Origin: a virus
IMG/VR virus record: IMGVR_UViG_3300032213_001988
Location: 1-64,000 of that record
Length of the DNA stretch: 64,000 nucleotides
Reading direction: 5' to 3' (one strand)
The stretch's first letter is position 1, and every line of letters starts with the position of its first letter. The position numbers and the translations under genes were made by a program. The notes below the pieces were generated by a model that ran no database searches, was not told the origin of the DNA, and saw only the letters and a list, made by a program, of their open reading frames with translations. Positions 9,807 to 50,132 of the stretch are shown one piece after another.

Positions 9807-10005
9807 GCTCTCCCTTTCAATACTGACAAAAACCCTAGTACATAACGCTTTTATAGGCATTGCTTAATGCAGAAGCAGTTTTGTATAATATGCGGAATTT
9901 GTGATAAATCAACTATAACGGGTATCTACCACTCATGTAAACAAACATACATACCAATTTTATGATTACAATTATTCTTACCCACTGCCGCAAAGGATCC
10001 TTTTA

Positions 10006-10377
10006 ATGCCACAAGAAGTAATCATTACCATTGCCGCTGTAATGGGTGGACTTGTCGTCATACTTGGCGGAATAATGTCAATATACAAGGTTGCTCGCCG
10101 CATCGATGAAGCCCTGGCTGTGGATGATCTAGGCAGAACAGTATCGGACCGTATGTCGCGCGTTGAGTACCAGCTTTACCGGAACGGCGGAAGCTCACTA
10201 GCTGATGAGGTAAGCGAGACGCATAGAATTGCAACGGAGACAGCGACGCAGGTACAAATAATGAAGGATATACTGTTAACTTTAATCGGGCAAGCCCCAG
10301 AATCTGCGCCAGCAAGAAGAAGAAAACCACGCGCTGCTACTAGCTTTGCTCTTAAAACATTCGATAAAGAAGACTAA
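10006..10377 (+). CDS. Single-TM membrane protein (actinophage lysis-cassette-type small protein)
   Basis: N-terminal hydrophobic helix and an NGGSSLAD motif typical of actinophage membrane proteins. Confidence 0.55.
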   Translation: MPQEVIITIAAVMGGLVVILGGIMSIYKVARRIDEALAVDDLGRTVSDRMSRVEYQLYRNGGSSLADEVSETHRIATETATQVQIMKDILLTLIGQAPESAPARRRKPRAATSFALKTFDKED

Positions 10378-10619
10378 CACCACTTAAAACTGCGCAAGTA
10401 GAAGCAGTTATCTCGACACTGTAGTAATTATATTAAACAGGGCGAGTCTGCTCAGCAGTACAGTTAGGTACACTTTTTATTAAAAAAAGATAGTCTTCAA
10501 TAGTGTACAGTTGAGCGTTACTTTTTTTACATTATTGTTTATAATATAGTTAAGTGTTTACTATAGGTATATAGTTTGCATCGTGCTGCGGCACCTACTT
10601 AGCGTTAAGATTGGTAAAA
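10378..10619. promoter_or_regulatory. AT-rich intergenic region (promoter, possibly origin)
   Basis: Non-coding, poly-T/A runs, TATAAT at 10540-10545. Confidence 0.4.
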
Positions 10620-10898
10620 ATGTCCTTAACTGAGAGGCTTTCTGTAGCCTCAGGCACAACAGTTGGTCTCCCATGCAGAGTCGGAAGTTTACTTGCTGGA
10701 GATCAGCTTTCAAAGGAAGATAAGGCAAAGCTTGCCGAAGTTCTAGAGGTTCCATACGGAGCCGCGGGGCGTCTACCTAATACAGCAATTGGTGCTGCCC
10801 TGCGTGATGAAGGCTTTGACGTTGGAGATGCAGCAGTCACAAAACACCGTCGTGGAGGATGTCGTTGTTTCGGTCCTAACCCCAAGGTTGCAATGTAA
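10620..10898 (+). CDS. Small HTH-like protein ending in HRRGGCRC
   Basis: ORF directly abuts the phosphoesterase; CRVG...HRRGGCRC may bind a metal. Confidence 0.6.
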   Translation: MSLTERLSVASGTTVGLPCRVGSLLAGDQLSKEDKAKLAEVLEVPYGAAGRLPNTAIGAALRDEGFDVGDAAVTKHRRGGCRCFGPNPKVAM

Positions 10899-12071
10899 AT
10901 GAGTCTAGCAGACAAGTTCTCTATGCCAGGAAGGTCTGGGTCTGATGTACGTCACACTAAGACACCTGAAGAATGGCGTCCCCGCATGGAGATCGATGAA
11001 GAAGGTGGCTATGCCATATCAACTCCAAAGGTTATGCCACCAGACGCGGTAGATATCTTAAAAGAGTTTGATCTTAGCCCAGATGATTGGATTATTACCT
11101 CAGTCCGCCGCTCTCGATGGCAACGCTACGATGAAGAGTGGCTGCACTCAGCTCGAGTTAACTTGGTCCCTGTCGCGCAAGGACTACAGGATAAGGCTGA
11201 TATTCAGTCCTTAATTGATGATATACGTAAGTGGAAGCCAAAGAAGTTTGAGAAAAAAGTAGGCAACCTCGCGTTTGTATTTGCCCCAAGCGACCAGCAG
11301 ATTGGTAAGAAACAAGGAGACCAAGGCACGGAGCAGACTATTCAAAGAATTCTTACTGCAACCGACGGCGCAGTTCAACGACTACATGATTTAAGAAAAG
11401 TTGGCCGTGAGATTGATACGGTCGTTATCGCGCTACTTGGAGATCACGTTGAAGGAAACGTGTCTCAAGGCGGGCGTCTTCAAAGCCACTCAGCATCTGA
11501 TCTTGGTCTTACAGAGCAGACGCGAGTTGGCCGTAGACTTCTTATGGCGCAGATTAAGGCATTTTCTCCTTTGGTAAACCGCATAGTAGTGGCGGTAGTG
11601 AATGGAAATCACGATGAGGTAAGTCGACAGTTTTCATTAGACCCAGCAGAAGGTTGGAACACTGAAATTGCAAGTGCTGTTCAAGATGCCTGCGCAGAGA
11701 ACGAAAATCTATCTCACATCGAGTTTAGATACCCTGCTAAGAGTCACCAGACCCTGGCTGTGGAGGTCTGTGGAACTATGATTGGCTTATTCCACGGACA
11801 TCAAACTGGCAAGGATGTAGTTAAGTATTTGTCAGAGCAGGCGGCAGGTCAGACTGCTCTCGGCGGATGCGACGTTTGGCTATCAGGGCACTACCATAAC
11901 TTTAGAAGTATGGACGTTGGTTCTCGCTTCTGGGCTCAGTGCCCAACAGTTGACCCTGGCTCAGCCTGGTATCGAGATCGACGTGGCTTAGAATCTAATC
12001 CAGGAATACTTACATTAGTTGTCGGTGAAAATCATGATCCGCGTCTTGACGTGAGTGTGATACCCGCATAG
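10899..12071 (+). CDS. Calcineurin-like metallophosphoesterase
   Basis: SDQQ, LGDHVEG, GNHDE, HGH and GHYH motifs. Confidence 0.85.
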   Translation: MSLADKFSMPGRSGSDVRHTKTPEEWRPRMEIDEEGGYAISTPKVMPPDAVDILKEFDLSPDDWIITSVRRSRWQRYDEEWLHSARVNLVPVAQGLQDKADIQSLIDDIRKWKPKKFEKKVGNLAFVFAPSDQQIGKKQGDQGTEQTIQRILTATDGAVQRLHDLRKVGREIDTVVIALLGDHVEGNVSQGGRLQSHSASDLGLTEQTRVGRRLLMAQIKAFSPLVNRIVVAVVNGNHDEVSRQFSLDPAEGWNTEIASAVQDACAENENLSHIEFRYPAKSHQTLAVEVCGTMIGLFHGHQTGKDVVKYLSEQAAGQTALGGCDVWLSGHYHNFRSMDVGSRFWAQCPTVDPGSAWYRDRRGLESNPGILTLVVGENHDPRLDVSVIPA

Positions 12072-12519: not shown

Positions 12520-15500
12520 ATGGCTTATGGTAATGATGTCGTTACTCGTGTTGTAACGGGGACATACCTTACTGGTCGCGGCGTACCTGCTCGTGGAAGA
12601 GTAACCTTTACTCCAACAGCAGTTGTAGTAGATCTAAACAACGCAGTCATAATTCCAGGCGCGATAGTCGCGACGTTAAATACTAGTGGTGCTTTCACAG
12701 TAACTCTTCCAACGACAAACAACCCAAATCTTTCGCCTGCCGGCTGGGCATATGAAGTAAACGTAAGATTATATGGTGTAAAACCACAAAGATTCTTTGT
12801 TTTCATTCCTAGTGGAAATACCGCACTAGATCTCAGCGTAGAGCTAAGCAGTGCGTCTCCTGTAGCAGACACAACAGAACTTCCTCCAATGCCACGTGGA
12901 CCAATTGGCCCTGTCGGTCCTACCGGCCCATCAGGCTCGGGTATTCGTGTTCTTGGTTCATTCGCAACATTAGGAGCTTTGCAAGCAGCATTCCCAACTG
13001 GCTCGACTGGTGACGGATACATAGTTGCTACTAATCTTTATGTGTGGAGTGCAAATACTTCAGCGTGGATTAACGTTGGTCCGTTTCTTGGACCTACAGG
13101 TGCTCAAGGTGTAACAGGCCCAACAGGTTCAACAGGCCCAACAGGCGCCACTGGTCCACAAGGAACAGTAGGACCTACCGGCCCGCAAGGAGTATCTGGC
13201 CCTGCGGGTGCTCAAGGTATTCAAGGAACTGTTGGTGCAACAGGCTCACAAGGTCCAACAGGCGCTACAGGAGCAACTGGTATTGCTGGTCCAACAGGAC
13301 CTACAGGCGCGACAGGCGCAACTGGTGCTGCATCTACAGTTACTGGTCCAACAGGTGCTACCGGTGCAACAGGATCCGCTGGAACTTCAGTAACAATTCT
13401 TGGTTCATATGTAAGCCTTGCCGCACTACAGGCAGCACAACCAACAGGCCTTCCTGGTGATGGGTATTTAGTTCTTGGAAACTTATACGTCTGGTCTGCA
13501 TCATCTGCAGCATTCGTAAATGTTGGACAGATTCAAGGACCAACAGGCCCAATAGGTGGAACAGGTTTAACTGGAGCAACTGGTGCGACCGGAGCTCAAG
13601 GAGTGACAGGACCTACAGGTTCACAAGGTATTCAAGGAGCAACAGGCGCCACAGGTGCACAAGGATCAACTGGTCCAACAGGCGCACAAGGCCCAACAGG
13701 CGCACAAGGTGTTCAAGGTAACGTTGGTGCAACAGGTCCAACAGGTCCGCAAGGACTTGCTGGAATAACAGGTCCAACAGGAATTGCTGGCCCAACAGGT
13801 CCAACAGGTGCGCAGTCAACAGTAACTGGTCCAACAGGTGCGCAAGGCGCAACAGGTCCAACAGGTGCGCAAGGTATTCAAGGTGTAAAGGGTGACCAAG
13901 GAGATCTTGGTCCTACTGGTGCAACAGGTGCGACAGGCGCAACAGGTGCAGCAAGTACAGTAACGGGACCAACAGGAAGTGTAGGACCTACTGGTCCAAC
14001 TGGAGCAACCGGTGCAACAGGATCTGTCGGACCAGCTTCTACAGTCACAGGACCGACAGGCGCTACAGGCGCTACAGGCGCTACAGGCCCACAAGGTATT
14101 CAAGGTGTAAAGGGTGATACTGGTAATGTCGGTGCTACAGGCGCTACAGGCCCACAAGGTTTAATAGGCGCTACAGGTGCGACTGGCTCAACAGGTGCAA
14201 CTGGCCCAGCAGTTACAGGCCCTACTGGTCCTCAAGGTCTAATCGGTGAAACTGGTCCGCAAGGAAGTACTGGTCCAACTGGACCTAACGGTGTAACCGG
14301 TCCAACAGGCGCAACAGGCCCAACCGGTGCTACAGGCGCAGCCTCTACAGTAACTGGTCCAACAGGTGCAACAGGTGCTACAGGCGCAACAGGCGCAACA
14401 GGCGCTACTGGTGCTGCGTCGCAAGTTACCGGCCCAACAGGCGCAACTGGTCCTACAGGTGCACAAGGTGTAATAGGCTCTACCGGTCCGACAGGCGCAG
14501 TTGGTGCAACAGGTGCAACAGGCGCAAGTATCACTGGTCCAACAGGAGCAACCGGTGCGACAGGCTCAACAGGCCCAACAGGCGCACAAGGAACAGCAGT
14601 TCGTATTCTTGGCTCATTCGCAACATTAGGAGCTTTGCAAGCAGCTTATCCTACAGGAGCTGCAGGCGATGGATATCTTGTAGTTGGAAATCTCTATGTA
14701 TGGAATGGAACTGCCTGGGAAAACGTTGGAACTATTCTTGGTCCAACTGGCCCAACAGGTGCAACTGGTCCTCAAGGTACAAACATTAACTTTAAGGGAA
14801 GCGTTGCTAACCTAACTGCACTAAACGCAATTACTGGTCAGGTGCGTAATGACGCATACATCGTAGACTCAGATGGAAATCTTTACGTATGGAGTGGAAG
14901 CGTTTGGGTAGACGCTGGGCAGATCGTTGGACCACAAGGTCCTACAGGCCCAACGGGTCCTACCGGACCAACAGGACCAACTGGAGCGCTTGGAAACTTT
15001 GCACCTACTGGAGCAACACCGCCATCTCCTGCAGTTGCAGGTAACGCCTGGTTTAACTCAGACAGCGGAAAAGTTTATATCTACTATGATAATTTTTGGG
15101 TAGAGGTTGGCGCGGCACCGGTGGGACCTACAGGTCCTCAAGGGCCACAGTCTACAGTTACCGGCCCAACCGGTCCGACTGGTATTCAAGGACCAACGGG
15201 TCCAACAGGCGCGCAAGGTCAACTAGGAACTACAGGAGCAACAGGTCCAACTGGTCCAACTGGCGCACAGTCAACAGTCACAGGACCTACGGGAGCAACA
15301 GGTCCTACCGGCCCAACAGGCGCTACAGGAGCTGCCTCTACTGTCACTGGACCTACAGGTTCACAAGGTATTCAAGGCCCAACCGGCCCAACAGGTCCAG
15401 TCGGACCAGTTGGTGCTGCATCAACAGTTACTGGTCCTACTGGAGCAACAGGCCCAAGTGTAACTGGTCCAACTGGCCCAACGGGTCCTACTGGAGTTCG

Positions 15501-30240: not shown

Positions 30241-32950
<2,710 letters not shown>

Positions 32951-32954
<4 letters not shown>

Positions 32955-33190
32955 TAATGGAAACCGTAGGAAACTGGCAGTGGCACGCTGAGGAAAGCGA
33001 AAATGCTCCTCTACTTAACCTAACAATTAGAAGTATCTCAGACAACAAGACGATTCGTATCTCTGACGTCGTTTGGGCAACCGGCCGCGAGGACTTTCTT
33101 GAAGGTGTCTACAACACCGCAGTTGAGACCTTAGATGGAGCAGATCACTGTTGCTATGAAGGAAAGGTCACTTTAGTACCTAATACGTGA
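32951..33190 (+). CDS. Hypothetical protein
   Basis: 79-aa ORF coupled (ATGA overlap) to the upstream gene. Confidence 0.6.
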
Positions 33191-33230
33191 TAAGATAACT
33201 GCGTAGCGACGAACAACAGGGAGAGAAAAA

Positions 33231-34307
33231 ATGAAGGTAGCTATCTACACAATCGCGCTTAATGAACTTCAATTTGTACAGCCTTGGTATGACTCCGCAA
33301 AGGAGGCAGACTACCTTCTAATAGCGGACACAGGTTCAACTGATGGCACAATCGAGGCAGCGCAGAAGCTAGGAATTAACGTAATAAACGTTCTTGTAAA
33401 GCCTTGGCGTTTTGATATGGGCCGCAATGCGTCTCTTGCAGCGTTACCAGCTGATATTGACTACTGCATCGCACTTGACATGGACGAGGTACTTTTACCA
33501 GGTTGGCGTGAAGAGCTTGAAAAAGCGCACGCAGAAGGTTGGACTCGTCCACGCTACGAGTACACATGGTCATGGAACGAAGATGGGACACCTGGTCTGG
33601 TCTACGGCGGAGATAAGATTCATAAGCGTTTTGGATATCGCTGGAAGCATCCCGTTCATGAGGTCTTGATGACATACGGAGATACTCACGAAACACAGGG
33701 CTGGACAGGATTAAAGATTCATCACCACGCAGACAACACTAAGCCACGTAGTCAGTATCTTCCACTGTTAAAGTTTGCAGTTGAGGAAGACCTAAGTGAT
33801 GACCGCAACGCATTTTACTACGCACGCGAGCTATATTTTTACGGACGTAACGAGGAAGCTGCAGTTGAGTTTAAGCGTCACCTTGCACTACCTCGCGCAA
33901 CATGGCCGCCAGAGCGTGCTGCGTCAATGCGCTATCTTTCAAAGATTGAAACTGATAAGACAGAGTACTGGGCAAACCGTGCAGTTGAAGAAGCGCCTGG
34001 TCGCCGCGAGCCACTAGTGGATCTATCAAAGTACTATTACGAAACATCAAATTGGACAAAGTGCCTTGATTACGCGCAGGCTGCACTAGATATTAAGGAG
34101 CGTCCTCTTGAGTATCTTTGTGAAGACGAGGCTTGGGGATACACTCCACATGACATGCTTTCAATAGCAGCATATCATCTAGGAAAGTTTGATCTTGCTG
34201 CAGAGCACGGAAATCTAGCTCTTCAGTTAGCTCCAGCAGGTGAAAAGTCTAGGATTTCTTCAAATCTTTCTTTTTACGTTTCTTCTCTAGACGCTCCTTC
34301 TTCTTAG
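33231..34307 (+). CDS. GT2 (GT-A) glycosyltransferase with TPR-like C-terminus
   Basis: VAIYTIALNE...IADTGSTDGT...RFDMGRN...IALDMDE (DxD)...VHE; helical repeat C-terminus. Confidence 0.88.
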   Translation: MKVAIYTIALNELQFVQPWYDSAKEADYLLIADTGSTDGTIEAAQKLGINVINVLVKPWRFDMGRNASLAALPADIDYCIALDMDEVLLPGWREELEKAHAEGWTRPRYEYTWSWNEDGTPGLVYGGDKIHKRFGYRWKHPVHEVLMTYGDTHETQGWTGLKIHHHADNTKPRSQYLPLLKFAVEEDLSDDRNAFYYARELYFYGRNEEAAVEFKRHLALPRATWPPERAASMRYLSKIETDKTEYWANRAVEEAPGRREPLVDLSKYYYETSNWTKCLDYAQAALDIKERPLEYLCEDEAWGYTPHDMLSIAAYHLGKFDLAAEHGNLALQLAPAGEKSRISSNLSFYVSSLDAPSS

Positions 34308-35243: not shown

Positions 35244-35771
35244 CTATAGGTTGTTAAACGTGCCTAAGTATAGGTTGCCGTTAACGTCAGGCCATAGGTA
35301 CTGATAATGAGGAGGGCGATAGCCAGGGTCTTCTTCCCAGCCAAACTGGCTATACCAGCTGTAATCTTTGCGTAAAAGTGACACACGGTGCGTGGACGCA
35401 ACCTGTTCAAACTTATCTCTGTCTGCCATCCAGCCAGGAAAGACTAGCTCTGGAGAGATTAACTTGCGCTCAACTGCAATATCAAATGTGCCGTAGATCT
35501 TGCCAAGCATTGTAGACTTGTAGCCGCGCTTACGCCACTCGAAGTACGTCGCTGCAAGATAAGAGACTAGCACGGCTTCGTGTCCGCGCCACATGTGCGC
35601 AACAGGATGATTAACCCAACCTTTAGGGTCACGAAACTCGCCCGCAGGATTAAGCTTAGTTAAGGCTAGTAAACACTGCCAGCCTTCTAAGGTTTGCTTG
35701 TGAAGGCGCTTGTTATCAAGCTCAGCAGCAATGCGCTCGAACGAATCGGTCTGTTGCATAAACGTTTGCAT
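35244..35771 (-). CDS. Pyrimidine-dimer DNA glycosylase family (DenV/MSMEG_6728-like)
   Basis: MQTF...LDNKRLHKQTLE...HPVAHMWRG...HRVSLLRKD..WY.QFGW...Y.WP. Confidence 0.8.
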   Translation of the reverse strand: MQTFMQQTDSFERIAAELDNKRLHKQTLEGWQCLLALTKLNPAGEFRDPKGWVNHPVAHMWRGHEAVLVSYLAATYFEWRKRGYKSTMLGKIYGTFDIAVERKLISPELVFPGWMADRDKFEQVASTHRVSLLRKDYSWYSQFGWEEDPGYRPPHYQYLWPDVNGNLYLGTFNNL

Positions 35772-35800: not shown

Positions 35801-35809
35801 AATTATATC
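35801..35809 (-). promoter_or_regulatory. Extended -10 promoter TGATATAAT
   Basis: TGn-TATAAT just upstream of the glycosylase RBS. Confidence 0.55.
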
Positions 35810-36086
35810 AGGTGCCCTTGCTATATGGGTCAGTATTGAGATCGTCTAGGTTAAGAGGATCAACGTCATACTGAACCTCATCTGCCTCCATGTTTGCGTA
35901 TATTCCTACTATAGTAATATCTCCACATGAGGCACAGACGTTAATCTCGCCTGTCTTTAGCTCATCTGGAACTGTCACCGCAGTTAGCTTAGATATTAAA
36001 CTTCCATCGTCTCCAACAGATTCTGGCTCCCACTGTGTGTTCTCTTCAAGATAACACTTCTCGCACTGCGGATAGGCTTTTGTCAT
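35808..36086 (-). CDS. Hypothetical Zn-binding protein
   Basis: CEKC...CASC. Confidence 0.6.
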   Translation of the reverse strand: MTKAYPQCEKCYLEENTQWEPESVGDDGSLISKLTAVTVPDELKTGEINVCASCGDITIVGIYANMEADEVQYDVDPLNLDDLNTDPYSKGT

Positions 36087-37318
36087 TCGTAGCGCTTCTT
36101 TGCTGCGTGCCTTGAGAAGCCCTTATCAGTGTCTATAAGCCATTCACGATCTCCGATTAGTTCACCCTGGGGTCCGTTAGGTTCCCCACTCAGAGAGGCA
36201 ACTACGGCATCTCCTAGCCACTTAGCAGCGTGCACTGGAACTGCCTTTCCCCACGTAGCTTGCATCGCAGAGTAGTCCTTAGCACCTTCAATGTCCCAAT
36301 CGTCTGGCAGACCTTGCATGCGTGCACACTCGCGGTGAGTAAGAAGTCGCGGTTCAGTTGGGTGAACAACATGATCTAACGCAGAGCCAGTAAGCACGTT
36401 ACACCAGTGATCTTCCTTCCAGCGATACGGCTGAGAAAACCCAAGTTTATACTGCTTGCGTACAACACGCGCAGATATGTCGACCCAACGTTGAGGAAAC
36501 TTGCCATCATTCATTTCAACGGCCTTCTTTATGGCTCCGCCAAGATCTCCGTTCCCTGGCCACCCGTCATTTCCAATGATGTCAAACACCTCTTGAATTC
36601 TCTGTGAGTGAATCGTGTCCTTGCCAATGTGCCCGTTTACCTTGCCGTTTTTTGAGCGCAAGGACTTAGTAAACTTAGAGTGTTTTTCAATGTAAGGCTG
36701 CGCCTCCCACTGTTGTGGAAGATGCGCAAGATCACCTATGATGTCCATGATCTTAGGGAATTCCTTAGGCTCTGTCACCTGCGCACCAAACTTTAATCCT
36801 TTGCGTACCGCAACCCAGAAGTAACGTGGTCGATACGAGAATCCACCAAGTTGAAGATTGTTTTGTTTTACGTGATATAAGTCGTATTTCTTACCAGAGA
36901 TCTCTTCTACCATAAGACGATACTTGTTCATCGTCTCTCTCCCTTGTGTATAGGCTTGCTGCACGCACTCAAACACAATAATCTTTGGCGCAACTCGCCC
37001 TGCGTATCTCATAAAGGCGCGCGTATGCTCGTGCGCTGCAGAATCAGGACCACGATTTGCAGGACCAGACCAGACTGACCAACCAGAGCATGGAGGACAG
37101 CCAACGACAGCATCAACCTTGTGAACTGGCCACTCGTTTGCGTCATCTGAGAAAAATGTGCTCCACTTATTGCCTAGATGATGACGATTAGCTTCTGCAA
37201 CTGCGTTGCCAAAGTTAAGTGTGCCCGTGCGATTTGTCATTTCCATTCCAGCCTGCACAAGGCCTAAGCTCATGAAACCTGCAAGCCCGTTGCAGTCAGT
37301 AAATGTTGGTGTAGTCAT
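36083..37318 (-). CDS. C5-cytosine DNA methyltransferase homologue with degenerate SAM-binding motif
   Basis: Motif IV GCPPCSGWS, motif VI FECV, motif VIII YRPRYF, motif IX RLLTHRECARMQGLPDDW, motif X WGKAVP; motif I reads DCNGLAGF. Confidence 0.8.
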   Translation of the reverse strand: MTTPTFTDCNGLAGFMSLGLVQAGMEMTNRTGTLNFGNAVAEANRHHLGNKWSTFFSDDANEWPVHKVDAVVGCPPCSGWSVWSGPANRGPDSAAHEHTRAFMRYAGRVAPKIIVFECVQQAYTQGRETMNKYRLMVEEISGKKYDLYHVKQNNLQLGGFSYRPRYFWVAVRKGLKFGAQVTEPKEFPKIMDIIGDLAHLPQQWEAQPYIEKHSKFTKSLRSKNGKVNGHIGKDTIHSQRIQEVFDIIGNDGWPGNGDLGGAIKKAVEMNDGKFPQRWVDISARVVRKQYKLGFSQPYRWKEDHWCNVLTGSALDHVVHPTEPRLLTHRECARMQGLPDDWDIEGAKDYSAMQATWGKAVPVHAAKWLGDAVVASLSGEPNGPQGELIGDREWLIDTDKGFSRHAAKKRYE

Positions 37319-37368
37319 AAAGTATCTCCCGTAGTAGCCACGGAAGGACTGTATACTGGCTTTTAAGC

Positions 37369-38324: not shown

Positions 38325-38795
38325 TTACCCCTCCACTACTGGTCTGCACTTTGCGCAGACGTCTGGCGTCTTGCCAACGCCAACATCGTCAATTGCCCTT
38401 GAGCACATCGCGCACTTGACGCCGATGTCCTTTACCTTATATCCATTTAACTGACGCTGCTTATTCTTTTCCATCTTTTCAAGATAGAACTTGTTAAGCT
38501 GCTCGTCTGTTCCTCCCGCCGCAACGATGATGTTTGCAACAAAGTGTAGAACGTCAACAGCTTCCTTAACAATCTCTTCGCGGTCTGCGTAAGGCTTATC
38601 GTGCTGCCAAGGCTTCCACGAAATTGCCTGCCGCATCTCTGCAAGCTCATCGTCGATGGCTAACATGTTCCAGCGCATGTACTCAACAAGACGGCGGATA
38701 TTCGCGTCCTTGTCGCCTTCCATCTCTTCGTAGTTAATGTAGTAGACGTCCTTCTGCAGGTCGCGTGTCTTCTTTAGCCAGCTATCAAACAGCAT
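38325..38795 (-). CDS. Dimeric all-alpha dCTPase/dUTPase (T4 gp56-like) with C-terminal Zn ribbon
   Basis: DELAEM...WKPW...KEAVDVLHFVAN...FYLEKMEKNKQRQLNGY matches the gp56 pattern WKPW...E..D..HF..N...Y..K...N..RQ..GY; then CAMC...CAKC. Confidence 0.8.
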   Translation of the reverse strand: MLFDSWLKKTRDLQKDVYYINYEEMEGDKDANIRRLVEYMRWNMLAIDDELAEMRQAISWKPWQHDKPYADREEIVKEAVDVLHFVANIIVAAGGTDEQLNKFYLEKMEKNKQRQLNGYKVKDIGVKCAMCSRAIDDVGVGKTPDVCAKCRPVVEG

Positions 38796-39804
38796 ATACT
38801 GCTCCTTTTATGTTAAGTGTTCTTTCTAAGTTGTGCAGTGCTTCTTCCTTGCCCGGTGAGTTAGCTAAGTAGGCGCTACTCTGAGTTCTTGACAGATCGT
38901 ATCTTTCCTGTGGTGTCATATCCTCAATCGTTGCTGCAAGGTACCTCCAAGAATTGCCAATTGCAGACGTGCTTGTCCAAAGTGACGCGATTGGCGTTGC
39001 AGTGTTCATTGCTTGGATATAACGATACGTCCACCAGGTTCTATCCTTGTGCGGGGATATAAGTGCACCAATAGACTGCCTGATCTGTTCTTCAACCTGT
39101 GAGTCAGTCCAGCCCTTGTTCCACTTCATTGGCATGGCCGGATAGTTTAAGGTTGAAAGCTTTTTCTTTGTCCACGGTGAATCATGACTATCTGCTACCC
39201 ATCGCGCAGTTCTATCTGTTACACCCTGCGTGTTTTTCTCGACGATATACGCATCAAGGTTTACTCCGTGCAGTGATGCAGCAGCTCCTTCAGGCAGTTG
39301 GTCACTGGCGCTTTGTTTTGTGTCCCAAGGAAGAACAGGGCACAATGTAGTTGGCCATGTTTCATTTAGTAGAAACTCAACAACGGCAAGCATCTCATTT
39401 GATCTTGCAACCGCAAGACGGTATCCCTTGCGGTTCTTGTAGAACTCCTTTGTAAGGTTTCCGTTCCAGGTGCTGATTGATGTCAAACTCGATCTAATCT
39501 GCACAGGATTAGGCGCGTCAATAAAAAACCTAAGCTTATCTGTACCCTTAAGCAGATCAATAAGGTGTAGTGCTCCATACGCGTAGTTTGCGCTTAAACT
39601 TGTTAACGGAGAGATGCCAACAAGAACTGAGTCGTAGTAGTCCAGGTGTTGAGCTTCCCACGTAATATCTGGCTCAAGCATCACGACTTGATGCCCTGCG
39701 TCAGTAAGAACCTTGTCAACAAGACCTGCAAAAGATAGCGAGCGCTTGTTTGCACTGGTTGATACCTGTGGCGCAGACATACCTGTAATAAGAACGCGAC
39801 TCAT
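38785..39804 (-). CDS. GT-B fold glycosyltransferase, putative DNA transferase 2
   Basis: RVLITG...LTDAGHQV...YDSVLVG...RFFID; C-terminal WWTYRYIQAMNTATPI. Confidence 0.6.
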   Translation of the reverse strand: MSRVLITGMSAPQVSTSANKRSLSFAGLVDKVLTDAGHQVVMLEPDITWEAQHLDYYDSVLVGISPLTSLSANYAYGALHLIDLLKGTDKLRFFIDAPNPVQIRSSLTSISTWNGNLTKEFYKNRKGYRLAVARSNEMLAVVEFLLNETWPTTLCPVLPWDTKQSASDQLPEGAAASLHGVNLDAYIVEKNTQGVTDRTARWVADSHDSPWTKKKLSTLNYPAMPMKWNKGWTDSQVEEQIRQSIGALISPHKDRTWWTYRYIQAMNTATPIASLWTSTSAIGNSWRYLAATIEDMTPQERYDLSRTQSSAYLANSPGKEEALHNLERTLNIKGAVYAV

Positions 39805-41006
39805 GCATCGGTACCGTCTGCGTTTAACTTAACGCCCTTGTCCTCGCGTAGTGCGCGCGCAATGATGCGTTCACAGTGATCCTTAAACTGGTCATACGTT
39901 CCGATGTAAGGGCGTAACGCGTCAGCCTGTGCCTTTGCTGCTGCAACTAGCTCTGTATCTGACATCTTTTCAACGTCTGCGATGGTTAACTTATAGGCAT
40001 CACCTAACGGATCACCTTCGCCTTTATCGGTAACGAGAATAGATCCAATGTGCGCTGCGTAGAGGAAGCGCGAACGCCACCAACCTGAACCTGCGTGTGG
40101 ATACGGTGGAGAAAGAATTCCCCAACGAGTGTTGTAATACTCAAGTACTTCCTGCTCTGTATCAAGACGCTTTCCACCAAGCTTACGAATAAGTTTACGA
40201 CTACCAATAATTTCAACAGCCCAGTCTGGTTTCTTACGACCTAGCCATTCATCGTGTGGCATTAGTGCGCCAAGCACCCACGCACGATTCTTTTCTGTCG
40301 ATGGAGTTACAGCTGCGAGCGTATCGTTAACCACTACACTAGGGTCCAGTGCCTCAATGGGACCGACTTCTTTTGGCATACGTTTACGAACACCGGTGCG
40401 GTCACCCCACGCATACATCGGACAAACTGGAACCATACCAGCTTCCCAGCGGCGGTCAATCATGTCTGTTGCTGCCTGCACAAGACGTTTTTCGTAAGGC
40501 TGAACGTTTTCGTCTGTGTCCATCATGTAGTAACGTTCAATGTAGCATTTCTTCGCCGCAACTGGATCTAATACACGAACACGTTCTAACGCTGCCTCGA
40601 TATCTGCGCGACTAAAGTAGGTTGCGCCTTCTTCACCGCGATGCTCTGTTCCAACAAGCAGATGCTTATAGAGCATTGAAGGCTTTTTCATCATAGCGCG
40701 AGCGCCATTGAACACAGTATTAAACTGCCAATCATCAAAAAATCCAACCGCAGGCAAGCCTGAGGATAAAGTATAGAGAGCGCCCATAGCGCCTTGTCGT
40801 CCATTTAGCGAGTTCAACGGAGCAAGGTTAACCCAAGCAACATCGTATGAGGACAAATCCTCGCCAGGCGTTACCTTACGCCAGTCAACTTCATGACCTA
40901 AATCTGTTAATGCCTTTACAATTAACGCAGGCACATCAATCTTTTGTATTGTGCGTCGTTCTGTGTTAATCTGTAACGCAGTAAAACCAGTCATCAAGAT
41001 TTTCAT
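39801..41006 (-). CDS. GT-B fold glycosyltransferase resembling T4 beta-glucosyltransferase, putative DNA transferase 1
   Basis: MKILMTG...LTDLGHEVD...DLSSYDVAWVN.APLN...GFFDDWQF parallels the BGT N-domain (DVNDYD.LIVVNSSIN...YLFTDIRL); C-terminal WWRSRFLYAAHIGSILV. Confidence 0.65.
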   Translation of the reverse strand: MKILMTGFTALQINTERRTIQKIDVPALIVKALTDLGHEVDWRKVTPGEDLSSYDVAWVNLAPLNSLNGRQGAMGALYTLSSGLPAVGFFDDWQFNTVFNGARAMMKKPSMLYKHLLVGTEHRGEEGATYFSRADIEAALERVRVLDPVAAKKCYIERYYMMDTDENVQPYEKRLVQAATDMIDRRWEAGMVPVCPMYAWGDRTGVRKRMPKEVGPIEALDPSVVVNDTLAAVTPSTEKNRAWVLGALMPHDEWLGRKKPDWAVEIIGSRKLIRKLGGKRLDTEQEVLEYYNTRWGILSPPYPHAGSGWWRSRFLYAAHIGSILVTDKGEGDPLGDAYKLTIADVEKMSDTELVAAAKAQADALRPYIGTYDQFKDHCERIIARALREDKGVKLNADGTDA

Positions 41007-48026: not shown

Positions 48027-48256
48027 AACGGAACATCTCCCTTATCATCGTCATCATCAATGTGACCGTACTCGTCCATTCCTTCGTGAACTCCTGCAGC
48101 AAGAATATGCGCAACAATAGTTACAGCCTGTCGACGTGTAAAACCAGCACGCGTAAGTTCGCGATACATCTCATGCATCTGTAGTGCAGCCTCGCGCAAA
48201 GGACTTATATTAAAGTCCTCCTCGTTAAGACCGCCTTCTTTCTTATTGTCCGTCAT
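48023..48256 (-). CDS. Hypothetical protein
   Basis: 77-aa ORF coupled to both neighbours. Confidence 0.65.
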   Translation of the reverse strand: MTDNKKEGGLNEEDFNISPLREAALQMHEMYRELTRAGFTRRQAVTIVAHILAAGVHEGMDEYGHIDDDDDKGDVPF

Positions 48257-49134
48257 TATTTACTTTTCTTGTCTGCTTGCTTTTCATCCTTCTGTAAGTT
48301 ATTTAGAACAGCGCGTTTCATCGAGTCAGTATACCACTTCTCAGCGTCGTTAAGACGCGCATACGTTGGCTCACTCACAGTTGCCTGCATTGCAAGCATG
48401 GCAGATGACTTAACCTCGTTCCAGGTGCGTCCAGTGATTGCAGGAATTGTCGGGCTATGCAGTGCGTGTGCAAGCTTATCTGCTGAGGCGTAGTGCTGCT
48501 CATAAATGTGAAGTGATCCTACGTGGTGATTGTATGTTCCAGGCTCGATACCTAAAACAGATGCCATAGCAATTTGCACGCGAGTAAACTGGAAGAAGTC
48601 ATACGCTGCACCTAGCCATACATCGTTTGAGCGCATATACACACTCATGTTAAGCTTGTTATTACGAATACGGAACTGATGCAGGATTGTGCAAGGGTAG
48701 TCACGCTTTCGTTCCTGTAGGTCAAGCTGCGGGTTCCAAATTGTAACTACTGCCTGTCGTGTATCAGGGTCTTGCATAAGTCTGTCAATAATCATGTCGT
48801 ATTGCCCTGCAGTTCGAGGACCGTATGCTCCGTGAAATAAACCGTTGTCCTCCGCGTAGTTTGCAAACTGCGGGCCAACGGAGATAACTAAGTCTGGAAT
48901 AGTTACACCTGCAAGAAGTTGACACGCCTCAACCGCACCGATGCCAGGAACTGTTCCTCGACCAACCTCAAGAGGTAAGGTGTTAAACACGTTGTCAATG
49001 CGAATAATCGCATCCTCGATCTCAAGGGTCTTCATACCACGTGGAGCAACCTCCTTGCCGTGCTCAAGTACATGCTTAACAAGATCAACGTATCCGTTGA
49101 CTCCGTCTTCTATATTTATTATCGCAGTATCCAT
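48256..49134 (-). CDS. Thymidylate-synthase-fold enzyme, dCMP hydroxymethylase-like
   Basis: DYPCT catalytic Cys; MRSNDVWLGAAYDF has Asp at the dUMP/dCMP specificity position; GSLHIY. Confidence 0.85.
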   Translation of the reverse strand: MDTAIINIEDGVNGYVDLVKHVLEHGKEVAPRGMKTLEIEDAIIRIDNVFNTLPLEVGRGTVPGIGAVEACQLLAGVTIPDLVISVGPQFANYAEDNGLFHGAYGPRTAGQYDMIIDRLMQDPDTRQAVVTIWNPQLDLQERKRDYPCTILHQFRIRNNKLNMSVYMRSNDVWLGAAYDFFQFTRVQIAMASVLGIEPGTYNHHVGSLHIYEQHYASADKLAHALHSPTIPAITGRTWNEVKSSAMLAMQATVSEPTYARLNDAEKWYTDSMKRAVLNNLQKDEKQADKKSK

Positions 49135-50132
49135 GCGTCATCCTTTTCTTGTAGTGTAGCAACTCGTAGAATTGCATCTCCGTATTCTTCCTTGCTTTTG
49201 TTAAAGAACCTACGCACATACTGCGGGTGAGGCAGAACAGAGTAGTAGTCCTCGTGTACGGGAATTGACGCCAACGTCTTCTCCGCAAGACGCCCAAGAA
49301 CAACTATTCTTGGGAAACCTAACGTTCTCCATAACTTTAAGAAGGAGTCCTTCACACCTTCATCGTTTATATTGACGATGCCCACGGCACGCCAAAGCTC
49401 CTCGGACATTGCAGTAAGTAGATACTCCGCAGAGTTACCATCAACAGGCATAAACGGAAGTTTTGTTTCCTCGCCGTATTTCTTTACGATGTTACGCGTA
49501 TCTCCAATAAGCAGCACCTTCGGGCTTGGGTTTCCAATATAGTATGGAAAAGGCTCGAGCTTGGCTGCCATTAACTCAACCTGCTCCGCGCTATCAACTA
49601 TATACTTTGCAACCTCAGGTATAAGATCAATGCTGTCTGCTGGAGGCTCAATCTTTGCAATGATGTTTGATGAGCCACAGGCAATTTCATATTGTTTAAG
49701 AATATCACTGAGGTCATCTACGTCTACAAAGTCGTCGCCGCGAGAGGCAAGACGCTGCTGAATAACATCAAGAGGCTGATATAGCCAAAATTGAGCAACG
49801 CCACGAGACATAAGGAAGAGTTCAACCCAACGCCAACCGGCCTTGCCTAATAGACCATATCCATCCTTGTTTGTACTTGGGCGAAACTTAGGAGCGTATG
49901 TTACTTCGCCCCAGTGCCAACGATCTGATAATCCAATTTTATTAAACCAATTTATTGGTTCAATTGACATGACGTAGTCGTTTAACACCCAACGGCGTGT
50001 TTGTTCTTCAGGACGCCCCTTGTGAAAAAGACGCGTTGGAGTAGTTGCAAAGCGCTCGTTAAGCTCGTGCTCAACTGCAGCGATAAGAGAGCTCTTACCC
50101 GATGCGTCGGTACCTTCGATTACTATAAACAT
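49119..50132 (-). CDS. dNMP (thymidylate-type) kinase fused to a uracil-DNA-glycosylase-like domain
   Basis: IEGTDASGKSS P-loop and DRWH; C-terminal VLLIGDTRN...FMP..GNSAEYL...IVVLGRLA...LPHPQY. Confidence 0.75.
   Translation of the reverse strand: MFIVIEGTDASGKSSLIAAVEHELNERFATTPTRLFHKGRPEEQTRRWVLNDYVMSIEPINWFNKIGLSDRWHWGEVTYAPKFRPSTNKDGYGLLGKAGWRWVELFLMSRGVAQFWLYQPLDVIQQRLASRGDDFVDVDDLSDILKQYEIACGSSNIIAKIEPPADSIDLIPEVAKYIVDSAEQVELMAAKLEPFPYYIGNPSPKVLLIGDTRNIVKKYGEETKLPFMPVDGNSAEYLLTAMSEELWRAVGIVNINDEGVKDSFLKLWRTLGFPRIVVLGRLAEKTLASIPVHEDYYSVLPHPQYVRRFFNKSKEEYGDAILRVATLQEKDDAWILR

Follow-up and report, generated by a model that had tools for sequence, protein, structure and literature searches.

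A phage C5-cytosine methyltransferase homologue with an apparently rebuilt cofactor pocket, encoded beside a predicted 5-hydroxymethylcytosine pathway

The subject of this study is P0001, a protein encoded on the minus strand of a 64,000-nucleotide stretch of viral DNA (IMG/VR virus record IMGVR_UViG_3300032213_001988, positions 1 to 64,000; hereafter the window). P0001 is a variant, so far uncharacterised, of a familiar type of enzyme, the C5-cytosine methyltransferase. Its cytosine-side residues are kept, several hallmarks of its cofactor side are changed and the changes are conserved among its relatives, and its gene is found together with genes for a predicted pathway to 5-hydroxymethylcytosine (5hmC). 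It is likely that P0001 is not an ordinary S-adenosylmethionine (SAM)-dependent methylase producing 5-methylcytosine (5mC) and that it belongs to the 5hmC pathway; it probably performs chemistry on cytosine or hydroxymethylcytosine other than ordinary methylation. The narrower view, that P0001 acts on the 5hmC of phage DNA and needs no SAM to do so, comes in our judgement close to an even chance but stays slightly short of it, as judged from alignments and gene context.

The structure of P0001 was modelled with AlphaFold. A run with 15 close sequences gave a predicted local distance difference test score (pLDDT) of 65 and was replaced by a run on an alignment of 71 sequences, in which the pLDDT was 95.7. 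The best Foldseek matches of this model were DNMT1, MET1, ZMET2, the prophage methylase 3G7U and M.HaeIII, with E-values of 1e-16 to 1e-21 for DNMT1, 3G7U and HaeIII, and the modelled fold is that of a C5-cytosine methyltransferase. P0001 also matched PF00145 with 81.6 bits (cut-off 22; E 9e-23), although only over profile positions 56-321 of 324, which leaves out motifs I-III. The score against the NCBIfam dcm model TIGR00675 was 48.9 bits, under the cut-off of 100.65, and a further family match was to phrog_116. The large target-recognition insert of these enzymes is present in P0001.

36083..37318, minus strand: gene of P0001, 411 residues, C5-methyltransferase fold, GK clade (open reading frame (ORF), PF00145, AlphaFold, Foldseek)

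The motifs that handle the target cytosine were located by alignment.

37076..37102, minus strand: motif IV, GCPPCSGWS, with the catalytic Cys77 (37088-37090) and Ser78 in place of the canonical Gln
36962..36973, minus strand: motif VI, FECV, with Glu117 retained and Cys118 in place of the Asn of ENV
36818..36832, minus strand: motif VIII, RPRYF, with Arg163 and Arg165, both invariant
36302..36364, minus strand: motif IX region, HPTEPRLLTHRECARMQGLPD

A reading of this DNA made from the letters alone (the sequence-only reading) had stated that the catalytic Cys of PPC, the Glu of FECV and the Arg of RPR are retained, and this was upheld well beyond the single protein: Cys77, Glu117, Arg163 and Arg165 were invariant in all 71 aligned sequences of the clade to which P0001 belongs, here called the GK clade. 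Val119, Arg324, Arg329, Glu330, Arg333 and Asp339 were equally invariant in this alignment, and H319 of motif IX was found in 70 of the 71 sequences.

The elements on the cofactor side, and a hairpin that follows them, were placed in the same way.

37274..37297, minus strand: rebuilt motif I, DCNGLAGF, with Asn10 in place of Phe and Leu12 in place of the first Gly of FxGxG (alignment)
37208..37231, minus strand: end of strand 2 and following loop, RTGTLNFG, lacking an acid at the place of the canonical motif II Glu (alignment and model)
36236..36253, minus strand: motif X, WGKAVP, with Lys358 (36245-36247) on the Asn of HaeIII GNAVP (alignment)
36131..36166, minus strand: clade-specific C-terminal beta-hairpin, GELIGDREWLID, lying past the end of M.HaeIII (324 residues, aligned to the last residue)

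Gap-free alignment of motif I with canonical LFSGVGGLSLG and with HaeIII FSGAGGLDLG matched the Phe with Asn10 and the first Gly with Leu12, and the HMMER alignment to HaeIII gave the same register. Another register, with Cys9 on the Phe, was dropped, as the gap-free canonical alignment favours Asn10. In the model of P0001, strand 2 comprises residues 26-32 and ends in R30-T31-G32, and Glu29 of HaeIII aligns with Gly32. In motif X, Gly357-Lys358 stands where canonical enzymes have Gly-Asn. The sequence-only reading had described these three features in the same terms (NxLxG for FxGxG, a strand 2 without a terminal acid, GKAV for GNAV) and each of them is confirmed by the alignments; its view that the SAM motifs are eroded was not borne out. 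In the near family (more than 260 homologues with 63-97% identity) D8, C9, N10, G11 and L12 were all invariant. Among 43 near-family genes, the ratio of nonsynonymous to synonymous substitution rates (dN/dS) was 0.025 for codons 1-60, 0.028 for the C-terminal tail and 0.060 for the whole gene. The region that holds the unusual motifs thus ranks with the parts of the gene under the tightest constraint, level with the C-terminal tail.

The same residues recur across the clade. Lys is found at position 358 in 70 of the 71 aligned sequences, position 10 is Q, N, H or Y, position 12 is F or L, and motif I as a whole reads D-[CV]-[QNH]-G-[FL]-[AG]-G. Motif IV is NPPCSGFS, with Ser for the canonical Gln; motif VI is E-S/C-V, where Ser or Cys replaces Asn and most members have Ser; and the C-terminal hairpin, specific to the clade, has the consensus GExIGDRE. 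P0001 carries the joint signature of the clade, which is [NQH]-G-[LF]-[AG]-G, PPCS, E-[SC]-V, G-K and the IGDRE hairpin. Of 61 distant members, only 36 have the strand-2 Glu, which the subfamily of P0001 lacks, and the motif II Glu is, on the alignment, dispensable across the clade. No conserved motif III Asp was found near strand 3 in the clade alignment, a stretch that aligns poorly with canonical motif III. The cytosine side is thus strictly kept, new invariant residues have appeared where the transferable group of the donor would lie, and constraint at the adenosine site is relaxed, a combination that speaks against an ordinary SAM site. Taken together, alignments and substitution rates indicate that the cofactor pocket is not eroded; it is rebuilt and conserved under strong purifying selection.

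The complete phage genome has 131,518 bp, direct terminal repeats and a G+C content of 47.6%, and its first 64 kb make up the window. It belongs to a freshwater actinobacterial phage. The phage was met repeatedly among assembled contigs of freshwater lake metagenomes, and of its named relatives the uncultured Actinomycetia phage DSL-LC01 is the nearest (69% identity for P0001). A megablast search of the P0001 region against phage records gave no match. The P0001 gene closes a minus-strand block of nucleotide-metabolism and modification genes, in which the following bear on the modification of cytosine.

38325..38795, minus strand: gp56/MazG-like dCTPase-dUTPase (PF08761)
38785..41006, minus strand: two paralogous putative GT-B glycosyltransferases of 339 and 401 residues (paralogy; kept in DSL-LC01 and the Gordonia phages)
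48256..49134, minus strand: thymidylate synthase (TS) homologue of the dCMP hydroxymethylase type, RDYPC...RSNDVWLGAAYD, with Asp at the N177 position (48598-48600)
49119..50132, minus strand: deoxynucleoside-monophosphate (dNMP)-kinase-like protein of 337 residues beside the TS homologue (phrog_761; weak YorR match; DSL-LC01 counterpart annotated as thymidylate kinase)

The block also contains a dCMP deaminase, PolA, SNF2, PD-(D/E)XK, AAA_24 and DUF669 proteins, and small ORFs including DUF6378. The DSL-LC01 homologue of the putative GT-B genes is annotated as a glycosyltransferase and an ESM Atlas lead pointed to Glyco_trans_1_2, while sequence searches of the PDB with the two proteins gave no glycosyltransferase match. 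Three positions of TS homologues are diagnostic: Asp at the position of N177 gives dCMP specificity, Asp at that of L143 marks a hydroxymethylase and not a methylase, and D169N marks 5-hydroxy-dCMP synthases (PMC13326640). In the TS homologue of the window, Asp stands in place of both N177 and L143 of E. coli (the latter in RDYPC), and Asp169 is retained. From these residues the phage is predicted to replace C by 5hmC before replication and then to glycosylate it, so that a C5 methylase would find nothing to act on in the phage's own DNA.

We then looked at how constantly the enzyme and this pathway are found together. An arrangement in which one or more glycosyltransferase genes are followed by the dCTPase, a small ORF and the enzyme is shared by DSL-LC01, Gordonia phages Sixama, GMA2 and GodonK, and Micrococcus phage Kurnik, the enzymes of which are 35-69% identical to P0001, and in nearly all relatives the PF08761 dCTPase adjoins the enzyme gene or sits at most about 1 kb upstream of it. 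All six phage genomes, the window included, encode a TS homologue that has Asp in place of N177. Similarly, 18 of 19 enzyme-bearing IMG/VR contigs of about 38 kb or more had a TS homologue, the exception being a 45-kb fragment, and all TS homologues on these long contigs had Asp at both the N177 and the L143 positions and kept D169. No TS homologue was found on the four contigs that bear canonical methylases with Gly-Asn in motif X. The sequence-only reading had proposed as a check that the motif set should co-occur with a TS of the Asp type, and the three counts bear this out.

To judge the extent of the clade, a profile search was made in 1.8 billion representative proteins, which returned 168 clusters at E<1e-30 and 414 at E<1e-10. 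When one genome each of 185,579 prokaryotic species was searched with a 10-sequence alignment, there was no full-length member among the matches listed, all of which were C-terminal matches to canonical methylases. The GK clade is apparently confined to viruses so far, and its absence from cells is strong although not absolute. Among the 20 longest clade representatives from the profile search, one was fused to the helical domain of a 5-hydroxymethyldeoxyuridine DNA kinase (5-HMUDK; E 5e-40, without Walker A), five to FkbM-family and three to UbiG-like O-methyltransferase domains, none of them CmoA-like (P0210, P0217, P0202, P0262, P0170, P0165, P0149 and P0164), and one to a winged helix. One fused form was found inside a locus of another phage (L192, 1071-4061) with the order dUTPase_2 (dCTPase), small ORF, enzyme, WhiB. 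Hydroxyl groups, or hydroxymethylpyrimidines in DNA, are the targets of the recurrent fusion partners. In P0212 (752 residues) the enzyme is split near its N-terminus by an intein with Hint, LAGLIDADG and splicing domains, which lies close to PPC by profile coordinates; inteins often sit in conserved functional sites.

The position of Lys358 can be compared with that of a residue of known role. CmoX of Synechococcus phage S-B43 (PDB 8YF3) is a natural DNA cytosine carboxymethyltransferase dependent on carboxy-SAM (Cx-SAM); the position of HhaI Asn304 is Arg350 in CmoX, where it contacts the carboxymethyl group in the crystal structure, and the engineered M.MpeI N374K, with Lys at the equivalent position, can use carboxy-SAM (PMC12783734). 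Lys358 occupies this same position and should therefore face a group that is on, or arriving at, C5. Like CmoX, P0001 is a phage C5-methyltransferase homologue with a basic residue in place of the motif X Asn facing a C5-bound group, and both are candidates for making a hypermodification handle. The two differ in that P0001 has Lys and not Arg, and in their adenosine contacts, which in CmoX are Phe25, Glu47, Phe48 and Asp69 (PMC12783734) and in P0001 are represented by Asn10 and Gly32, with no conserved motif III Asp. They also differ in motif IV, which is SPPC in the family filter used by the CmoX authors, CPPC in P0001 and NPPC in most of the GK clade, and in setting, as CmoX alkylates after replication whereas a pre-replicative 5hmC pathway lies beside P0001. 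From the canonical methylases (M.HaeIII, M.HhaI, 3G7U and DNMT1), with which it shares the fold, the Cys of PC, the motif VI Glu, RxR, motif IX and the target-recognition insert, P0001 is set apart by NGLAG, the missing strand-2 Glu, PCS, ECV, GK, the additional C-terminal hairpin and the sub-cut-off dcm score, and the clade is set apart by its finding in viruses only and its tie to TS with Asp.

The specific reaction that we propose, as a tentative and rather doubtful refinement, is that of a cofactor-independent enzyme that rewrites 5hmC in DNA: Cys77 would add to C6, Lys358 would drive out the hydroxyl (or an oxygen in activated form), and another nucleophile would be attached. The phage would swap C for 5hmC ahead of replication, and its own DNA would offer no free C5. 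P0001 would flip 5hmC or a derivative of it out of the phage DNA, and Cys77 would add to C6 of the flipped base. Lys358 would occupy the site of the donor's transferable group and, together with the smaller Ser78 and Cys118, might make room for the oxygen of the 5-CH2-O substituent and bind or activate it. The substituent could then leave by way of an exocyclic-methylene intermediate, and the other nucleophile would take its place.

By analogy, this would be the cytosine counterpart of the chemistry of amino-acid:DNA transferases on phosphorylated 5-hydroxymethyluracil (5hmU), in which attack of a thiolate on C6 displaces phosphate from 5-phosphomethyl-deoxyuridine (PMC8989533). The analogy with these enzymes (clade 2 aGPT-Pplases) is functional, in that a C6 thiolate exchanges a group on the 5-methylene of a hydroxymethylpyrimidine; they have no homology to P0001, have a helix-hairpin-helix glycosylase-like fold and act on 5hmU after phosphorylation by 5-HMUDK. 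Among the C5-methyltransferases themselves, M.MpeI binds 5hmC DNA covalently and strips off the hydroxymethyl group, which is released as formaldehyde, and SAM-free dehydroxymethylation is reported for other methylases too (PMC11347137). The glucosyl-hmC pathway of T4 (gp42, gp1, gp56 and the alpha/beta-glucosyltransferases) has counterparts in the TS homologue, dNMP kinase, gp56-like dCTPase, dCMP deaminase and putative GT-B proteins of the window. We know of no C5-methyltransferase-fold gene in the T4 pathway, and P0001 differs from it as an additional, uncharacterised component.

Several points weigh against a SAM-independent enzyme of this kind. The proposal, the geometry of the pocket included, is drawn from alignments and gene context, and the 5hmC of the phage DNA is itself a prediction; in the literature there is no published DNA composition for the cultured carriers, and the GMA2 paper contains no DNA-modification data. 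The counts of co-occurrence are not independent, being partly inherited, since most carriers have a replication module (SNF2, PD-(D/E)XK, AAA_24 and DUF669) in common. In the complete phage genome neither the 5-HMUDK helical domain nor an enzyme supplying a nucleophile was found, and the genome lacks the activating step, should the hydroxyl require one. Finally, motif I still has its second and third Gly (GG), and their survival, together with the strand-2 Glu in most of the clade, may mean that some adenosyl ligand is possible. With regard to the counts, L092, a complete 57-kb genome, carries the enzyme without most of the actinophage replication module, which adds at least one further independent lineage. 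Clustering of the neighbours at distant loci returned the replication module, MazG and DUF932 only, with no kinase, and a tblastn search from three distant clade members led to no cultured phage of known DNA composition. Of the idea that P0001 is a repurposed SAM-independent enzyme beside an hmC pathway, as the sequence-only reading put it, the tie to TS with Asp, the rebuilt cofactor side and the invariant cytosine side have gained support, while SAM independence itself is inferred. That reading also lacked a rival which the literature raises, for Lys at motif X recalls the carboxy-SAM users M.MpeI N374K and CmoX.

According to this rival, P0001 would be an alkyl transferase using an anionic SAM derivative such as carboxy-SAM, with Lys358 salt-bridging the carboxylate, and residual cytosines, or specific ones, would be turned into 5-carboxymethylcytosine or a base like it. 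Lys358 does sit on the motif X Asn and is near-universal in the clade, this position decides Cx-SAM use (PMC12783734), and relatives are fused or adjacent to domains with the class-I methyltransferase fold, which is that of CmoA. We nevertheless consider this unlikely. CmoX needs a phage CmoA and usually a ligase (PMC12783734), and no match to CmoA (TIGR00740) or to a CmoY/Asn-synthetase-type ligase (PF00733) was found in the complete 131,518-bp phage genome, to which this search was confined. The fused domains match FkbM and UbiG O-methyltransferases and not CmoA, the residues that contact adenosine in CmoX are replaced in P0001, the Leu or Phe that replaces the first motif I Gly should collide with the donor, and C5 of the phage cytosines is predicted to be occupied already. 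An ordinary SAM-dependent C5-cytosine methyltransferase with divergent cofactor motifs, aimed at residual cytosines or at the host, would agree with the significant PF00145 match and the methyltransferase fold, with the intact catalytic motifs, with the GG of motif I and the strand-2 Glu of most members, and with the annotation of relatives as methyltransferases. This seems to us distinctly improbable, given that four hallmarks of the cofactor side were changed together and then conserved throughout the clade, that the dcm score is below the cut-off and the Pfam match lacks motifs I-III, and that the exclusive tie to a pathway blocking C5 leaves no substrate in phage DNA. Moreover, restoring the canonical Asn in CmoX (R350N), at the position of Lys358, did not confer use of SAM (PMC12783734).

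Two further explanations were weighed. In one, P0001 would be a weapon or a quality control directed at unmodified C: lacking a methyl donor, it would use the ammonium of Lys358 to protonate C5 once Cys77 has attacked, the 5,6-dihydrocytosine would deaminate to uracil or the enzyme would be trapped, and host or other C-containing DNA would be damaged while the 5hmC DNA of the phage would be spared. Toxicity to anything with C-DNA would account for the occurrence of the enzyme with TS of the Asp type only, and for the fact that none was found in cellular genomes or prophages; exchange of H5 is known for SAM-starved C5-methylases, which also deaminate C, and in the near family a T4 endonuclease-V-like glycosylase is encoded two genes downstream. 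The explanation is improbable in our view, for it leaves unexplained both the fusions to O-methyltransferases and to the HMUDK helical domain and the tight embedding in the dCTPase-glycosyltransferase module, and the smaller residues in place of Gln and Asn near C5 suggest space for a substituent and not for H. In the other, P0001 would be a non-catalytic, base-flipping accessory that presents 5hmC or glycosyl-5hmC to the glycosyltransferases or to fused O-methyltransferases, which would suit the recurrent fusions to other enzymes and the constant glycosyltransferase neighbourhood. It is very unlikely, as the invariance of Cys77, Glu117 and Arg163/165 in 71 of 71 sequences is unexpected for a binding module, and the intein of P0212 close to PPC hints at a functionally important site.

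The immediate surroundings of the gene were also examined. The P0001 gene is preceded by a ribosome-binding site and ends in an ATGA that its stop codon shares with the start of the downstream gene.

37325..37330, minus strand: ribosome-binding site GGGAGA, 6 nucleotides 5' of the P0001 ATG (direct sequence reading)
35808..36086, minus strand: ORF of 92 residues, translationally coupled to the P0001 gene through ATGA; kept in the closest relatives only
35244..35771, minus strand: PF03013 T4 endonuclease-V-like pyrimidine-dimer glycosylase, two genes 3' of the P0001 gene

The PF03013 glycosylase adjoins the enzyme gene throughout the near family and not in distant relatives. The dNMP-kinase-like protein at 49119-50132 has an additional C-terminal half of about 190 residues, for which a weak ESM Atlas lead (0.83) pointed to viral clusters in which 18-30% of members have a uracil-DNA glycosylase domain; with a kinase and a base-flipping fold together, it could be a DNA-base kinase instead of, or besides, a dNMP kinase. 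The only other methyltransferase-fold gene of the phage genome (Methyltransf_23, 262 residues) lies outside the window, at 125846-126634 on the plus strand of the complete genome (G000), and is unrelated to the fused domains. On the plus strand of the window, at 30241-34307, two collagen-like fibre proteins with Scl/Lcl-type repeats and one small ORF are followed by a GT2-TPR glycosyltransferase, which probably serves virion glycosylation and stands apart from the DNA-modification module. The locus of DSL-LC01 (L001) has two genes that are absent from the phage of the window, one for a UDP-galactopyranose mutase in the glycosyltransferase module (10947-12044) and one, directly upstream of the enzyme, for a free-standing class-I methyltransferase of 170 residues (14431-14943). 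Another atypical C5-methylase homologue, with PCGGLS and motif X QGVPV, was noticed at 10001-11062 of locus L077 (IMG/VR contig G020, 45.5 kb, complete); it shares its genome with a TS gene of the Asp type and may be a second kind of rebuilt enzyme.

The C5-methyltransferase fold is among the best-studied of enzyme scaffolds and, to our knowledge, natural members with a donor other than SAM were first reported in 2025, with CmoX. The GK clade points to a missing step in the hypermodification of phage cytosine or to a new way of telling C-DNA from hmC-DNA, and either outcome would add a reaction type to the DNA methyltransferase (DNMT) superfamily. If the rewriting of 5hmC proposed here is true, it would be an undescribed cytosine hypermodification of actinophages and a new class of reaction in this superfamily, with a bearing on how phages evade restriction and modification-dependent defence. 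It might also provide a 5hmC-specific enzymatic tool for epigenome sequencing, much as M.MpeI N374K does for 5mC. As cultured carriers exist, namely Gordonia phages GMA2, Sixama and GodonK and Micrococcus phage Kurnik, the question is directly testable.

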